DNA of 64,000 nt from Candidatus Bilamarchaeaceae archaeon (lineage in GTDB: Archaea; Micrarchaeota; Micrarchaeia; Anstonellales; Bilamarchaeaceae): NCBI GenBank assembly GCA_038851325.1, contig JAWCKZ010000002.1, forward strand, positions 71,888 through 135,887, written 5' to 3'. The notes under the pieces were generated by a model, which was not told the DNA's origin, did no database searches, and saw only the letters and a list, made by a program, of their open reading frames with translations. Both the position numbers and the translations under genes were made by a program. Of the stretch, positions 1-6,185 are shown piece after piece. Positions within the stretch are counted from its first letter, which is position 1. Each line of letters opens with the position of its first letter.

Positions 1-53
1 TTTTTCCCATATACTGTAAACAACAAGCAAATACCGAACGCTTAGTGAAGAGT

Positions 54-1400
54 ATGAAATATTTCAAAACATTTATGGTGGATGCTGCAAAGCAGAAGAG
101 TAAAGGCCCTACTGCTAACCATAAACTAAACAAATTGTATGTTCAGCACGAAGGGTTGCTTACCACTCAAAACAACGTACAACCATCGCCAAGGGGGCGT
201 AATGTAACCGTACATGGTCCACTAAAAATTGCTTTGGAGGAGTTTGCGCCAGACGCCGAAAGCTACGACTCTCTACGATGTATAACCAGGTTCGCAAGCG
301 AGGACTTTAGTAGTCTTTCGGAGTACCTATTTACAGTGCTCAAAAAAGCCTTTGAAGGCGTGGTGAGATGCTCCATCTATCTTGCCGAAGAGGTAGGAAC
401 CAGGAGCAGTTTCAAAACAATCCTCTCGCATTATCTGACTATTAACATGAATGGAAATGTAAGAACAAGTTCGTTGGACAAGGGAAGCAGAATATCAGAT
501 AAGAGCGATCCTATTTTGAAGGCTTATCTGGATAAAAAACCCAGGTTTATAGATTATCGCGCGGGCATGGACCTGATTTTCAAGAATCTTAATTATGAAA
601 ACAAAGACTGTGATGTGTACGTAAGAGAACCTAACATCCTTAAAGATGATGTTGCGTTGATACCATTTTATTACAGGGAAAGGGATAAACTTCGCGGTGT
701 GATGGTACTGGAAGGAAACCTCAAGTGTAAAAATTCGGCAAAATGTGGTTTTGGGAAAGCATTCTATTTTATGATGGCAGCTACAGCACTCGGCGCCCAA
801 GTTGGTTTTATATCAATGCAAAAATACGATCACACAACCGCGCTGTATAAAAAAAGCGATTTTGAGATAGACCTAAAAACATTAATTCGCAGATTGTTAA
901 AAGCACAAAAGCGTGGTGCGCAAAAGAACGCTATTATCCTTCTCGTAGACCTTGATAATTTTAAGGCGGTCAATGAGCATTATGGATATTTAGCTGGGGA
1001 CGCTCTTCTTAGTAATATAGCAAAAGCGATAAAGAACTCCGTGCGCAGGCCCACACAAAACAGAAAATCAGACATTATAGCCAGATGGGGCGGGGAGGAG
1101 TTCGCTATTCTTCTTGAGGATATAGATGAAGAAAATGCAATCAAAATAGCCAACCGAATCAGGGACGAGGTGGCCAAGGCAAAGATAAAAGTTGACGAAA
1201 AAGAGATAAGAGTAACATGCAGCATAGGCCTTCTTAATATCGAGAAAGCTTTGGCGACAGATAAGAGAACAGGTGTGGATGAAGCAGCAAAAAATGTTTT
1301 TAATAAATGCAACACCCTTCTCAAATCTGTTAAAAGCAACGGAAAGAATGGAATAGCGTTTGTTTCAGAGGGCAATGGTGTGGAGCTGATACGCGGATAG
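54..1400 (+). CDS. GAF-GGDEF diguanylate cyclase
   Basis: LLVDLDNFKAVNEHYGYLAGD motif; RKSD-IIARW-GGEEF (RxxD I-site plus active site, GGEEF at nt 1089-1103); VTCSIG and KSNGKN; upstream GAF-like segment (ALIPF...LRGVMVL). Start ATG 54 or GTG 45. Confidence 0.9.
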   Translation: MKYFKTFMVDAAKQKSKGPTANHKLNKLYVQHEGLLTTQNNVQPSPRGRNVTVHGPLKIALEEFAPDAESYDSLRCITRFASEDFSSLSEYLFTVLKKAFEGVVRCSIYLAEEVGTRSSFKTILSHYLTINMNGNVRTSSLDKGSRISDKSDPILKAYLDKKPRFIDYRAGMDLIFKNLNYENKDCDVYVREPNILKDDVALIPFYYRERDKLRGVMVLEGNLKCKNSAKCGFGKAFYFMMAATALGAQVGFISMQKYDHTTALYKKSDFEIDLKTLIRRLLKAQKRGAQKNAIILLVDLDNFKAVNEHYGYLAGDALLSNIAKAIKNSVRRPTQNRKSDIIARWGGEEFAILLEDIDEENAIKIANRIRDEVAKAKIKVDEKEIRVTCSIGLLNIEKALATDKRTGVDEAAKNVFNKCNTLLKSVKSNGKNGIAFVSEGNGVELIRG

Positions 1401-1445
1401 CGTAGAGTTTTTAAATTATCTTTCTATAGTTTTTTTGGTAATCGT

Positions 1446-2258
1446 ATGCCGAGAAATTTCTTTATAACCGGTTTGCCAAAATCCGGGAAAACAACAATTC
1501 TGAGGAAGCTTATAGAGGAATTTAAGAAGAGGGGACTTAAGGTCGGCGGGTTTATCTCCCCAGAAGAGAGAGAGCACGGCACTAGAGAAGGTTTTTATGT
1601 TCAGGATATAGACACAGGCCGGATCGGCAGGTTGGCATCCACAAAAGGTGACGGTCCAAAGGTGAGCAAGTATCACGTAGATATAAAATCCTTTGAGAGT
1701 ATTGCGGTGCCGATCATGAAAAAAGTTGACGAGTATGACGTTCTAATCATAGATGAGATAGGACGAATGGAGATGAAAAGCAAAAGGTTTGTGGAGCTCC
1801 TTGATGAAGTATTCGAGTCCCAAACACCAGTCATCGCATCTATTCATCAAGACTACGTGCTGACGTACGCCGTAAATGGTGAGATATTTGTTGTCACACC
1901 GACGACTCGCGAGGCCGTGTTTATTGATCTCCTTAATAAAGCAACTCAGGAATACTCACGGGTTCCACCCGAGGAGAAAATAAGGAAAAAGGAAAAGCCA
2001 CCCAGAAAAGAGAAGAAGAGAAAAAAGGAAAAAAGGAAAGGAAAGGAGAAGACAAAGAAGGGAAAAGGGTTGAAAGAAGAAAAGAAAACGGAGGAAAGAA
2101 AGGAGCTGAAGGAAGAACGAGAAAGGGCAAAGGAAGAGGAAAGGAAAGAGGAAGAGGAAAGGAAAGAAGAGGAAAAGGATAAAAAAGAGGAAAGAAGTGC
2201 TGAAAAACCAGCGCAAAGAGGAATAATAAGAAAATTTCGTGAGCTACTTGGTTTTTAG
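1446..2258 (+). CDS. Nucleoside triphosphatase (NTPase_1/THEP1 family) with long charged C-terminal tail
   Basis: FITGLPKSGKTT Walker A, VGGFIS, REGF, IIDEIGRME Walker B; K/E-rich tail ending GIIRKFRELLGF. Confidence 0.88.
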   Translation: MPRNFFITGLPKSGKTTILRKLIEEFKKRGLKVGGFISPEEREHGTREGFYVQDIDTGRIGRLASTKGDGPKVSKYHVDIKSFESIAVPIMKKVDEYDVLIIDEIGRMEMKSKRFVELLDEVFESQTPVIASIHQDYVLTYAVNGEIFVVTPTTREAVFIDLLNKATQEYSRVPPEEKIRKKEKPPRKEKKRKKEKRKGKEKTKKGKGLKEEKKTEERKELKEERERAKEEERKEEEERKEEEKDKKEERSAEKPAQRGIIRKFRELLGF

Positions 2259-2334: not shown

Positions 2335-4041
2335 TCAGCTGCTCTCTTCCCACAGCTTCTTTATCAATTTCTTTAGCTCTTCTCGCTTTCTTAGGAATTC
2401 CATCTCTTCTTCTTTCGTTAGTCTCATCTGCTCTTTTATATATGCTTCTTTTTCCTTGATCTCTTCTTTTTCCTTCACCTTTCCCTCACCTATCCTGAGT
2501 TCAAGAAGTTTTGCTTGGTGCGAGAGCAGAGTAAGACGCTTGTTCAGGCCATCTGACATTTCTGAAAGTCGCGAGAGCGAGTTGTTTATCTCATCTAAAA
2601 GTTTCTTTTTTTCCTTTATTTCCTTTGCGGCCTCAAGTGCTTTTTTGAGTTCGCTTTCACCAACTTTCTCTGCGAATTTTTTTGCCTCTTTTTTGATTTC
2701 TGTTTCCTGCGCTGCAGCAATCCCCCTCATTCTTTCGAGCTCCTTCTCTATCTTATCTATTTCGGCATTATATCCTTTAAGCGACGGTACAATACGCTCT
2801 TTTATTTGCTGGAATGTGACATATCTGTTTTTATCCTCTTCGAGCGCTTCTGAAATCTTCAGTGATTCTTCTTTCAACTCTGCAAGTTTATCCTCTATGT
2901 TTTTGGCAAGCTCCTCTGCCTCAACTGCTGTGGTTCGTCTTCCGCCAGCAACTTCGAGCAGCCTTTTTAGCGCGCTCACCTTCTCTTCTATTTCCCTCTC
3001 TCGTCTTTCAAGTTCTTTCATTTCTTCATGGAGTTTGGCTTGAGATGGAAATCTTGTTACTATACCTTTTGCAACTTCCAGAGAATCCGAAAAGCGCTCT
3101 ATGGTGTCAAAATTCTCCTTTAGTTTTTCATCTACTCTCTTTATGTTCTCAAAGAGTTTGTCTGCCTCTTTAGTGAGCTCCTTTAATTCTTGTTTAAGCG
3201 TTGCGGATGTTTTTTCATATTCTTTTAGAGATCCTCCAACTGCTGAGACTATTTCGGCTCCTTCTTTAATGCTTACTATATCCTCCCTAAGTATTGCATT
3301 TCTTTTCTTCATCTCGTTGAAATCTCTTACAAGGGAATCAAATTTCTTGCGCATTTCCGCAGCAGACGGTATCTCAATCCCTGTTGGAACTTCTTCCTTA
3401 AGTTTTCTTTTTGTTTCCTTCAGTTCACTCATTAGACCAAAAATCTCATTTTGAAGAGTCTTAAACCGCTCAAACGCCTTTTCGCTTTCAGGTTTGGATA
3501 TCTGTGAGCTTAACGTGCTTACCTCTTTTTGGAGCTCTTTTATTTCATTCCTAATTCTGTTTATTTCAGAAACGGCGTTCGACAAGATCTTTAAACTATC
3601 ATCAAATCTTTTCTCCGAGAGCTCCTTCTCAGCTATAACTGGTGCGATATTCCGTTCTATATCGTCCAGACGCTTGTATATTCTTGCGTAAACCTCTGAG
3701 AATGATTCTTTAAGTTTTTCGATCTTTTCCATCTCAGGTAAAAGAGCTTCCCTTGTTTTTTCTATCTCTTTAGTAAGCTCTGCCTTTTCTTTTTCAAACG
3801 AGAGACGTTCCTCCTCTATCTGTTCGGCTGCTGGTTGAACCCATACAAGGTATATCTTGGCAAGTTTATACTCTACACGAATTATTCCTTCTTCCTCAAG
3901 AACTCGCGCCCACTCTTCGATGGTGTCAGAAGGAATGTTTAGGGTTGCAGCGCATTCATCCACTTCTATTTTTCCTTTTTGCTTCACAAGTTTAACGAGA
4001 GCATCAACTCCTGTTGTGATCAGTAATTCATCAAATTCCAT
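2335..4041 (-). CDS. Hypothetical protein, N-terminal winged-helix-like domain plus long coiled coil
   Basis: N-terminal TTGVDALVKLVK...EEWARVLEEEGIIRVEY HTH/wing pattern, then ~480 aa of E/K heptads; no Walker motifs. Confidence 0.75.
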   Translation of the reverse strand: MEFDELLITTGVDALVKLVKQKGKIEVDECAATLNIPSDTIEEWARVLEEEGIIRVEYKLAKIYLVWVQPAAEQIEEERLSFEKEKAELTKEIEKTREALLPEMEKIEKLKESFSEVYARIYKRLDDIERNIAPVIAEKELSEKRFDDSLKILSNAVSEINRIRNEIKELQKEVSTLSSQISKPESEKAFERFKTLQNEIFGLMSELKETKRKLKEEVPTGIEIPSAAEMRKKFDSLVRDFNEMKKRNAILREDIVSIKEGAEIVSAVGGSLKEYEKTSATLKQELKELTKEADKLFENIKRVDEKLKENFDTIERFSDSLEVAKGIVTRFPSQAKLHEEMKELERREREIEEKVSALKRLLEVAGGRRTTAVEAEELAKNIEDKLAELKEESLKISEALEEDKNRYVTFQQIKERIVPSLKGYNAEIDKIEKELERMRGIAAAQETEIKKEAKKFAEKVGESELKKALEAAKEIKEKKKLLDEINNSLSRLSEMSDGLNKRLTLLSHQAKLLELRIGEGKVKEKEEIKEKEAYIKEQMRLTKEEEMEFLRKREELKKLIKKLWEESS

Positions 4042-4094: not shown

Positions 4095-6185
4095 ATGCGA
4101 TCCCATGCAATACTTTTTCTGGCTTTGATGGCAGGCCTGTTGTCAGCGTTTGTGCCATCGGATTATTTCTACGCCAACGAGGGAAATGTTACGGTTACAT
4201 ATACTAACTTCACACTCAATGGAACTCATTATTCCATAGTTTATTTTAATGACCAGGAAACATTTCTTATTAGAGAAGGAGAAATCGTGAATGATAGTGA
4301 GATAATAAAAAACGTAGTACGGTCATATTATAGAAGTGCGTTCTTACCTTCGGAATCTGAACTTGATGAAATACGCTCTTTGGTAACGGCATACAACGCA
4401 AGCAGAAATGACGGCTACGGCTACTACAAAAATAAAGAAGAGTACGAATGCAGAGGCGCACTACTAACTGATAAAAGAATAGAGATTTATATTAATGGAA
4501 CAAGACAAAAATTGTGGTGTCATGACGATGCAAGTTGTGAAATAAACGCCATGTTATTGTACCAGGCTTATGGCGAAGGGCTTGGGTGGTCAAGTTACAG
4601 AGTGATACTTCAGCCGTTGAAGGATTTCGCATATTCAAGTTACGGCACTGACGAAATTTTAGAAAACTTTACACGGATGCTAAACACCGACGATGCAACC
4701 GAGCTCTATAACGCTCTTAATTATATGAAGAATTCGATACCAACTTTGGAGTCTTACGCCACTAAGATAGAATCTACCATCTTTAGGTTGCCTCGTCCGG
4801 ATGATGCCGCGGACAAAGAAAGTTGCCATTTGATATGCTACTCAATATGTCCGCCTTTTGATCTTAATACAACTATCCTTGACAGGCTTGAGACAAGGAT
4901 AGATAGCATAAAGGCTAAGATACAGCCACTTGCTGAATACAATACCGTTGCAGAACACATAATCACGAGGACAAATGAGCGGGCGGCGTATAGATATACT
5001 TCAATGACAAGATCGCATTATAACAACATCTTTTCTCCTCTCGAGACAGAAGGAAGAGAAGTGGAAGAGTATGCTGCAAATGCCTATGGCCTTGTTGGGA
5101 ATACCTCTTTGATGATAAAGACAGAACAGCTAAAAGCCCTTCGTGAATCCATAAGAGGAAAAATAACCAACGCCTCATTTACCGGTTTGGATGACGAGAT
5201 AAGAATCTATAGAGCGATGCTTTCTTCTGTAAGGGAAGGCGCTGACTCCACATATTCGCTCTACAACGAGACTATGGATGCTAAGCGGAGAGTGGATGCT
5301 GTTCTATTTGAGCTTGGTACGAAAGATCTCTCTGATCCCGACCGAAGAGAGTACAACGAAATTAGGGAGCATGTTAATGAATTAAATCTTCAGTTTACTA
5401 AAGGCATAACGCCTGAAAAGTGTATAGAGTTAAAAAATGGTTACGATGCAGCAGAGAAGGATGCGCAGGGCCTTTTGAATAGGGTCACGATGAGTGCTGG
5501 GACAACTGCTGTTGATGCCTTTCGAATGTTTTCCATAAGGATGAACAACGGAATCGCAGACATCCTTAGGGCGACAAAAATGGCCGAGGTGAAATCAGTA
5601 CCGCACAACAAGCTTACTTTCTTCGGTGGTTTTAGCATTCTCGTGTTTATTTCATTTATGTCCATAGCATTTCTTTTGTTCCTGTATTCTGTTGGAGTGA
5701 ACAGAGACTCGCACCTTAAGTATATTCTAAGCGCTGGCCTTATGTTGGTCGCTATCCTTGCTGCTGTTTTTTCCGGTTTACTCTATTATTACATGGACAA
5801 GACAGCTACCGAAGCTACTATGGATGAGTTTCTTTTTGACCTAAACAAGAAAAGCACGGTTGCACTGGTAGCCAAGATAGACCTAGCAACTCCAGGGGAA
5901 GCCGAAAGCATAAAGCGGTGCATGGGTATAGTGGCAAATACAATCAGAGAAAAAAACAAGACGGTTGATGTTTATTATTTAGAATCAGGAAATGTTTGTA
6001 AAAAGAATAACGCAACCTACGAAAACTGCGCAGCTGATATAGAAAGCCACAATACCGCAATAATTTTCAGTCCCTCGACCACAGTGGAACCACCAACACT
6101 GTCTACGATATTCGTAAGCAAAGCGGAGATAAGAGGGCCAGCAGATTATTACGAAACATGCCCGCTTTCAGTTGTCTTTAAATAG
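4095..6185 (+). CDS. Secreted/membrane hypothetical protein
   Basis: Signal peptide, many N-x-S/T sequons, two TM helices near aa 510-565, C-terminal four-Cys domain. Confidence 0.8.
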   Translation: MRSHAILFLALMAGLLSAFVPSDYFYANEGNVTVTYTNFTLNGTHYSIVYFNDQETFLIREGEIVNDSEIIKNVVRSYYRSAFLPSESELDEIRSLVTAYNASRNDGYGYYKNKEEYECRGALLTDKRIEIYINGTRQKLWCHDDASCEINAMLLYQAYGEGLGWSSYRVILQPLKDFAYSSYGTDEILENFTRMLNTDDATELYNALNYMKNSIPTLESYATKIESTIFRLPRPDDAADKESCHLICYSICPPFDLNTTILDRLETRIDSIKAKIQPLAEYNTVAEHIITRTNERAAYRYTSMTRSHYNNIFSPLETEGREVEEYAANAYGLVGNTSLMIKTEQLKALRESIRGKITNASFTGLDDEIRIYRAMLSSVREGADSTYSLYNETMDAKRRVDAVLFELGTKDLSDPDRREYNEIREHVNELNLQFTKGITPEKCIELKNGYDAAEKDAQGLLNRVTMSAGTTAVDAFRMFSIRMNNGIADILRATKMAEVKSVPHNKLTFFGGFSILVFISFMSIAFLLFLYSVGVNRDSHLKYILSAGLMLVAILAAVFSGLLYYYMDKTATEATMDEFLFDLNKKSTVALVAKIDLATPGEAESIKRCMGIVANTIREKNKTVDVYYLESGNVCKKNNATYENCAADIESHNTAIIFSPSTTVEPPTLSTIFVSKAEIRGPADYYETCPLSVVFK

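Follow-up and report, generated by a model that had tools for sequence, protein, structure and literature searches.

Diguanylate cyclases, the GGDEF-domain enzymes that make cyclic di-GMP (c-di-GMP), were still described in 2023 as almost exclusively bacterial, and c-di-GMP as not found in archaea (PMC10249747). A 2018 census had listed one archaeal GGDEF protein together with an inactivated REC-GGDEF protein in Ca. Micrarchaeum, with doubts about origin (PMC5847659), and gene counts of diguanylate cyclases are available for ultra-small microbes (PMC9938205). In September 2026, Sidorov et al. described GGDEF proteins of isolated archaea and 20 more from metagenome-assembled genomes (MAGs), mainly DPANN and class II, and reported cyclase activity of some archaeal GGDEF proteins in Salmonella and E. 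coli reporters, leaving open how frequent such proteins are, whether phosphodiesterases co-occur with them, what their receptors are and where they originated (PMC13725321). Here we describe a gene for a 448-amino-acid GAF-fold/GGDEF protein in the genome (~0.9 Mb) of a tiny, symbiotic archaeon of the Micrarchaeota (DPANN), found on the forward strand at positions 54..1400 (stop codon included) of a 64,000-nucleotide stretch of DNA that we call the window (G000:C2:71888-135887, where G000 is the genome itself and C2 its contig of 135.9 kb) and to which all coordinates below refer. The gene is intact, truly archaeal and long resident in its genome, and we consider it probable that it encodes a cytoplasmic diguanylate cyclase governed by a GAF-fold sensor and working by the mechanism set out below. 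A preliminary description of this DNA had offered as a novelty that archaea have no established c-di-GMP signalling, a claim that the reporter activities in PMC13725321 have since overtaken. Archaeal GGDEF cyclases have been in print since 2026, and the locus is a further example, not the first; what it adds is a cleanly archaeal, motif-complete predicted cyclase within a conserved, Micrarchaeota-specific GAF-fold/GGDEF family.

Reading frame, domains and active-site residues

The open reading frame (ORF) proved to be intact, as had been proposed, with 448 codons leading from the ATG at 54 to the TAG at 1398-1400 and a GGDEF match far beyond chance. A GTG at 45 offers an alternative start; because the alignment of orthologues begins at ATG 54 and because a variant strain carries two changes at window positions 48-49, directly 5′ of this ATG, we accepted ATG 54 as the start codon.

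The GGDEF (diguanylate cyclase) domain occupies 825..1364 (forward strand, residues about 258-437), as delimited by PF00990, TIGR00254 and the predicted fold. PF00990 was the sole Pfam family of the protein and matched residues 257-407 with 104.6 bits (E = 5.9e-30), well above its cut-off of 23.8 bits, which answers the hidden Markov model (HMM) check that the preliminary description had suggested; the NCBIfam model TIGR00254 matched residues 258-434 with 101.7 bits (cut-off 37.4 bits). Translating the window coordinates returned, in order and all on the forward strand, the wide-turn motif DHTT at the domain start (828-839), DLDNFKAVN with D299, D301, K304 and N307 (948-974), GD with G315 and D316 (996-1001), the active-site hairpin motif GGEEF (residues 346-350, 1089-1103), SIG from residue 390 (1221-1229) and, in the last helix, KSNGKN with K427 and K431 (residues 427-432, 1332-1349). 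The GGEEF, D-x-D-x-F-K-x-x-N and GD motifs named in the preliminary description were all recovered in this way, as was its remark that the usual ND..GH here reads NE..GY (N307 E308, G311 Y312). We take D299 to be the metal-binding Asp of the GGDEF domain, and K427 and the Lys or Arg at position 431 to be a functional pair of the last helix, after PleD; the second position of that pair is Arg in most bacterial cyclases.

Conservation was counted over 47 non-redundant members of the protein family. Kept in nearly all of them were D299 (46), D301 (46), K304 (47), N307 (47), G346 (44), G347 (45), E349 (46), S390 (45) and K427 (46), and the positions at which the window protein has less usual residues were mixed: 31 members have K and 15 have R at position 431, 23 have Y and 22 have H at position 312, and 34 have D and 8 have E at position 308. 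In work on the Hypr subgroup of GGDEF enzymes, the Asn corresponding to N307 contacts the sugar face and the Asp corresponding to D316 reads the Watson-Crick face of guanine, and an Asp at this guanine-reading position together with GGEEF goes with an active, GTP-specific diguanylate cyclase (PMC6456294). The window protein combines Asn307, Asp316 and GGEEF. Judged from its translated sequence, the archaeal protein retains the residues for diguanylate cyclase chemistry.

Comparisons with solved structures pointed in the same direction. A profile of the family matched the solved, active cyclases 5xgb, 3ign, DosC (4zve) and PleD (1w25) at E values of 1e-30 to 1e-35. A structure model of the full-length protein had a predicted local distance difference test score (pLDDT) of 81.3, and in a Foldseek comparison with 3ign it reached a template modelling (TM) score of 0.91, normalized to the target, with a root-mean-square deviation (rmsd) of 2.0 over 183 columns. 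A search of the PDB with the model returned 121 matches (E ≤ 0.001) headed by diguanylate cyclases, and the best full-length match was the diguanylate cyclase Dcsbis (4zmu, E = 1.1e-13, 408 columns).

An inhibitory site (I-site) at canonical spacing had also been proposed, and the spacing is exact: the RxxD motif RKSD (R337-D340, 1062-1073, forward strand, by translation) stands five residues before GGEEF, as RKSD-IIARW-GGEEF, with R344 further on. The pattern RxxD-x3-R-x-GG[DE]E[FLI] was present in all 20 orthologues from related genomes and in 30 of the 47 members of the wider family. Because the RxxD motif is retained here and to this extent among relatives, we can fairly infer that the predicted I-site would work as a site of product inhibition.

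Ahead of the GGDEF domain, the protein begins with a Lys-rich tail that is poorly conserved and predicted to be disordered (residues 1-47, 54..194, forward strand), pLDDT being below 50 over residues 1-47 of the full model and over residues 1-41 of a separate model of the N-terminal part (pLDDT 83.1, predicted TM score 0.78). The tail is followed by the predicted sensor (residues about 58-231, 225..746, forward strand) and by a long linker resembling a signalling helix (residues 232-257, 747..824, forward strand), which is helical in the full model and over residues 232-255 of the N-terminal model. The preliminary description had called the sensor GAF-like, which held for its fold, predicted over residues about 65-256, and not for its sequence. 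When the N-terminal model was aligned to known structures with VIA-align, the best matches were 3trc (Z = 12.0, 142 of 168 residues, rmsd 3.3), 4g3v (Z = 11.9) and 6oza (Z = 11.2), the 30 best of 48,161 chains were almost all GAF domains, and so were all of the top 10 in Foldseek (E values of 2.5e-4 to 1e-3). At the level of sequence models, the Pfam GAF models PF01590, PF13185 and PF13492 matched the N-terminal parts of 0 of 20 family members at E ≤ 1, and none matched the whole window protein at E ≤ 0.01. Since the structure matches GAF and the sequence models do not, we call the sensor a GAF domain by fold only. Three of its cysteines, C106, C186 and C225 (369-371, 609-611 and 726-728), are kept in 38, 27 and 30 of the 47 family members, respectively, which hints at redox or metal sensing.

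From this layout we infer catalysis, dimerization, a ligand and feedback in the following form. The GAF-fold domain would bind a small ligand or sense redox state, and the long helix of residues 232-257 would relay the signal to the GGDEF domain. Two subunits would then pair their GGDEF domains, each holding GTP and Mg, as in bacterial GAF/PAS-GGDEF cyclases, and the paired domains would yield c-di-GMP and two pyrophosphates. By occupying the RxxD site (R337-D340), the product would in turn lower the activity of the enzyme. That the organism itself produces c-di-GMP in vivo would, at most, be suggested by the presence of the gene.

Archaeal residence and family history

The gene lies 71.9 kb into its 135.9-kb contig, and hence mid-contig, in an assembly of 0.90 Mb and 18 contigs that is 90.9% complete and 0.02% contaminated. 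The 15 kb upstream hold genes for Topo VI-B, a UbiA prenyltransferase, a GHMP kinase, SBDS, fibrillarin, PyrI, PyrB, aRF1, a beta-carbonic anhydrase and a polyprenyl synthase; downstream come an NTPase gene (NF010248) and two ORFs without clear family, and the contig extends for 62 kb in the window. By our judgement there are at least two unambiguously archaeal flanking genes on each side, the standard applied to archaeal GGDEF genes in PMC13725321. The composition of the gene is that of its genome, with a GC content of 0.412 against 0.429 (z = -0.81 relative to 569 long ORFs) and, among 240 ORFs of comparable length, a codon-usage distance at the 21.7th percentile.

Contigs from four DNA runs of one study (a hot springs metagenome) bridge both junctions of the gene. 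One bridging record covers L010 12816-16773, from aRF1 to the NTPase gene, and a contig from a diverged strain spans L010 14029-19000 with 37 differences; the source sample may be among the four runs, which makes this support no more than partly independent. Of the 11 coding differences listed for the variant strain, 7 were synonymous and 4 non-synonymous, and none fell in a motif. The preliminary description had named in advance an upstream sequence revealing a misjoined bacterial fragment as the observation that would speak against it. What we found instead were bridged junctions, archaeal flanks and host-like composition.

The nearest relatives of the protein carry the name Candidatus Micrarchaeota archaeon. 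A search for related loci returned no matches when made with the single protein, and three named Micrarchaeota loci when made with an alignment of four sequences. A protein search across the 176 genomes of the order was positive in 65 (E ≤ 1e-5), in many of them for the GGDEF part only; full-length orthologues, 31-56% identical, were present in 19 further genomes of the archaeal family. We also ran a profile of the N-terminal 256 residues against 1.84 billion representative proteins, which returned 41 proteins at E ≤ 0.001 (38 of them at E ≤ 1e-10). A Pfam GGDEF domain was carried by 36 of the 41; the other five were three pieces of 121-245 amino acids, one protein of 367 amino acids without a Pfam family and one tetratricopeptide repeat (TPR) protein, which is probably a chance match. 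By these profile searches, the sensor is a narrow, lineage-restricted domain that is almost always joined to a GGDEF cyclase.

The preliminary description had also asked for a phylogeny, which we supplied as a tree of 132 GGDEF domains, quickly built by maximum likelihood, midpoint-rooted and with support from the Shimodaira-Hasegawa-like approximate likelihood ratio test (SH-aLRT) only; its rows were collected with an HMM built from the family at a coverage of at least 75%, with identical sequences dropped. In this tree 42 family rows formed one group with an SH-aLRT support of 98, 45 rows were united at 89, and, six more paralogues from this archaeal family included, 52 rows were united at 91, separate from 75 database matches that are mostly bacterial by name. 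Other paralogues in related genomes (L002, L008, L040 and L032/L033) fell on the bacterial side of the tree. An ancient bacterial transfer into the ancestor of the archaeal family would be compatible with the reading that we favor.

The family is under purifying selection, with ratios of nonsynonymous to synonymous substitution rates (dN/dS) of 0.137 and 0.130 in two orthologue pairs with unsaturated dS; both are pairs of other family members, dS being saturated in the pairs that contain the window gene. The family is divided at position 316, the guanine-reading site, which is Asp in 25 of the 47 members, the window protein among them, and Asn in 22. Orthologues involved in this split include those at L015, L017, L019-L026, L029 and L030. 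Asn at this position is neither the canonical Asp nor the Ser/Thr of Hypr enzymes, and a description of such a variant was not found in the available text of PMC6456294. Members with Asn316 might differ from the others in their choice of base, and the presence of Asn in half of the family may amount to a second, undescribed base specificity.

Competing readings and signalling partners

Several observations weigh against a working, feedback-inhibited diguanylate cyclase. Within the protein these are its departures from the textbook domain: DHTT, where the domain-start motif is the wide turn DxLT (PMC13725321) and D and T are kept with L replaced by T; Lys431 for the usual Arg, with K427 kept; Glu308 for Asp; Tyr312 for His; and an insert, peculiar to the family, that follows the SIG strand, precedes the last helix and cuts the Pfam match short at position 143 of the 161 in the profile. 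Of the 47 members of the wider family, 17 lack the strict I-site pattern. The genome, at 90.9% completeness, gave no matches to EAL (PF00563), HD_5 (PF13487), PilZ or MshEN and 0 matches to the c-di-GMP-II riboswitch (RF01786), and because no classical eraser or receptor domain was found, a complete signalling circuit cannot be drawn. In the literature, among seven MAG proteins assayed by Sidorov et al., three were riboswitch-positive and not one gave consistent results across the three assays (PMC13725321); c-di-GMP itself has been detected in no archaeon according to the text available from two sources (PMC13725321, PMC10249747); and the accessions of the present family, NYZ77375.1, MFH0737893.1 and MFH0950453.1, are absent from the main text of PMC13725321.

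The alternative that best survives the evidence, unlikely as we consider it, is that the GGDEF domain is catalytically dead and that the protein serves as a receptor binding c-di-GMP or GTP, or as a scaffold. Degenerate GGDEF proteins act as receptors or scaffolds in bacteria, and the textbook deviations described above (K431 for Arg, DHTT and the insert) would be in keeping with such a role. Precedents exist closer by as well, in the catalysis-independent phenotypes that archaeal GGDEF proteins produced in Salmonella (PMC13725321) and in a REC-GGDEF regulator of Ca. Micrarchaeum acidiphilum whose GGDEF domain is inactivated (PMC5847659). However, the residues that are usually lost in dead domains are all kept, in 44-47 of the 47 family members, and the gene holds the only GGDEF match in its genome, which counts against this alternative since a receptor would have no endogenous source of its ligand.

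Still less probable is an active enzyme with another product, whether 3′,3′-cGAMP (cyclic GMP-AMP), c-di-AMP or a linear dinucleotide, in the manner of Hypr enzymes. Asn replaces the guanine-reading Asp in 22 of the 47 family members, and base choice may vary in the family for that reason; moreover, searches of the genome returned no partner domain specific to c-di-GMP. The window protein itself, however, has the strict diguanylate cyclase combination of Asn307, Asp316 and GGEEF (PMC6456294), and the Ser/Thr of Hypr enzymes is absent at position 316. Least credible of all is bacterial DNA, introduced by a binning or assembly artefact or by a very recent, unintegrated transfer: GGDEF domains are overwhelmingly bacterial, the earlier census doubted archaeal GGDEF contigs (PMC5847659) and the GGDEF paralogues L002, L008, L040 and L032/L033 sit among bacterial sequences in the tree, yet this gene lies mid-contig with archaeal markers on either side, its junctions are bridged in four runs including a diverged strain (all of one study that may include the source sample), its GC content and codon usage fit the rest of the genome, the orthologues from 19 other genomes of the archaeal family form one group, and the sensor domain occurs almost only with GGDEF (36 of the 41 representatives).

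Domains related to c-di-GMP were counted over 61 sampled genomes of the order, which are mutually related and incomplete and for that reason serve as a description of the sample without a statistical test. PF00990 was present in 37 of the 61 (16 of the 32 high-quality ones), several genomes having two to three matches each; it was found in all six other genomes of the genus, and the genome studied here has a single match. PilZ occurred in one of the 61 genomes and was not found in 36 of the 37 GGDEF-positive ones. HD_5, the HD-GYP model, occurred in 14 of the 61 (12 above the cut-off), including 4 of the 24 GGDEF-negative genomes. EAL was confined to two genomes, in both as a GGDEF-EAL fusion. 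These fusion proteins measure 863 and 868 amino acids (L002/L041 on G036:C42 and L005/L042 on G008:C44), and the GGDEF domain of L002 is placed among bacterial sequences in the tree. Taken together, 12 of the 37 GGDEF-positive genomes had EAL or HD_5 and 25 had neither; across the genus, EAL and HD_5 were each found in 0 of the seven genomes, that of the window included.

The single GGDEF gene is also the only cyclic-dinucleotide synthase domain found in the assembled genome, where a search for diadenylate cyclase (PF02457) returned nothing and the same search, as a control, matched in three archaeal model genomes. Three proteins of the DHH family are encoded in the genome, among them a stand-alone DHH-DHHA1 protein of 319 amino acids, on contig C15, that is a possible candidate for a dinucleotide hydrolase.

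Beyond the enzyme itself, we entertain, tentatively, that the Micrarchaeota have a pathway of c-di-GMP or a related dinucleotide with novel readers and erasers, or else that the molecule is a symbiont's signal or decoy directed toward its host cell. Conservation of the family and purifying selection on it speak for such a reading, as do the frequency of GGDEF (37 of the 61 genomes), the lack of EAL and HD-GYP matches in 25 of the 37 GGDEF-positive genomes, that of PilZ matches in 36 of the 37 and the Asn that half of the family has at position 316. Because GGDEF is frequent and the classical partners were mostly not found, the family is a good entry point to archaeal c-di-GMP receptors. At the level of the lineage we regard the interest as moderate, lying in a frequent cyclase, the few classical partners found and the Asp/Asn split at position 316.

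Gene neighbourhood and relation to described cyclases

The cyclase gene is preceded by an intergenic spacer (1..53, forward strand) that reaches ~12 nucleotides past the window start to the stop codon of a polyprenyl (GGPP-type) synthase gene (PF00348, 233.8 bits). A TTTTAAA box ~60 nucleotides 5′ of the cyclase ATG could act as an archaeal TATA box. On the other side, a 45-bp spacer (1401..1445, forward strand) contains an A/T box, TTTTTAAATTAT, and a run of seven T, and may combine a terminator of the cyclase gene with the NTPase gene's own promoter; the two genes would then be transcribed separately. Over the window, an Rfam scan gave 0 matches and a tRNA search 0 tRNAs, and the GGDEF protein had no match among the PADLOC defence models.

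That the next gene, 45 bp away on the same strand, encodes an NTPase was rightly noted in the preliminary description. The gene (1446..2258, forward strand, 270 amino acids) matched PF03266 with 150.5 bits and NF010248 with 158.1 bits (cut-off 156). The protein ends in a Lys/Glu-rich tail of ~100 residues (about 1950-2258), and contigs of two runs lack 18 bases at position 2131, an in-frame length polymorphism of the tail. As for any meaning of the adjacency, it was seen only in this one genome. Within about 1.5 kb of a GGDEF gene, homologues of the NTPase, the polyprenyl synthase or the carbonic anhydrase were found at 0 of 37 loci in other genomes, and only two loci of the genome itself were positive, and we rejected a functional link with the NTPase. 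The neighbours that the orthologue has in a congener find their counterparts on contigs C5, C9 and C1 of the present genome, not on C2; the cyclase gene has stayed intact through rearrangement of its neighbourhood.

Two other genes recur beside orthologues. In three congeners a protein of 103-118 amino acids with two CxxC pairs and an acidic tail is encoded directly 3′ of the cyclase gene (L012:2838-3179, L013:2841-3197 and L014:1111-1422); it had no family in a Pfam search, and its homologue in the present genome sits on contig C9 (C9:12165-12326, reverse strand), so we rejected it as a fixed partner here. In another genus of the archaeal family, eight loci (L015, L017, L020, L021, L022, L025, L026 and L029) have a triosephosphate isomerase gene upstream of the cyclase gene, on the same strand and 0.3-0.7 kb away in the five inspected (L015, L017 and L020-L022), a linkage that probably reflects shared descent.

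Further along the window, a 568-amino-acid coiled-coil protein (2335-4041, reverse strand) has weak coiled-coil-type Pfam and PADLOC matches and a weak hint of an N-terminal helix-turn-helix, and a 696-amino-acid protein (4095-6185, forward strand) has hydrophobic segments and many N-x-S/T sites and no Pfam or PADLOC family. Elsewhere in the genome, at G000:C17:7002-9069 (L054), the archaeal model of small-subunit ribosomal RNA, 1478 positions long, covers 2068 bases (984.5 bits); from this difference the gene seems ~590 bases longer than the model, and the extra bases are possibly an intron or insertion.

Among described proteins, the bacterial GAF-GGDEF cyclases, such as Dcsbis of P. aeruginosa (4zmu) and the phytochrome-linked cyclase of Idiomarina (5llw), share with the window protein the order of sensor, helix and GGDEF domain. 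The identity to 4zmu is 16% over the 408-column alignment, the host is an archaeon, and the GAF part belongs to a separate, lineage-restricted family (41 in 1.84 billion proteins). With the Class I I-site cyclases PleD (1w25, 2v0n), WspR (3bre, 3i5a) and the Marinobacter enzyme 3ign, solved with c-di-GMP, it has in common the metal Asp, the guanine Asn and Asp, GGEEF, an RxxD five residues upstream and the fold; it differs from them in a GAF-fold sensor in place of REC, a last helix with Lys instead of Arg, DHTT instead of DxLT and the extra insert. The Hypr cGAMP synthases, of which Geobacter GacA (5VS9) is an example, likewise have a GGDEF domain and the sugar-face Asn (PMC6456294), whereas their signature Ser is absent from the window protein, which has Asp316 and GGEEF.

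Closest in kind are the proteins of Sidorov et al., Methanocella arvoryzae GGDEF_MRE50 among them, with which the window protein shares archaeal flanks, GG(D/E)EF, the signature residues and an N-terminal sensor, GAF being one of the sensors listed (PMC13725321). The RxxD site, which the window protein also has, was tested there in one protein. In contrast to the GAF sensors of that study, the sensor described here escapes GAF sequence models, and where archaeal GGDEF genes appear in the available text of PMC13725321 as occasional and single-copy, they occur here in 37 of the 61 genomes, several of them with two to three matches. The WspR-like REC-GGDEF protein of Ca. Micrarchaeum acidiphilum belongs to the same phylum and has the same type of output domain (PMC5847659); the regulators of that organism are inactivated and REC-linked, whereas the protein described here keeps its active-site residues intact and joins them to a GAF-fold sensor.

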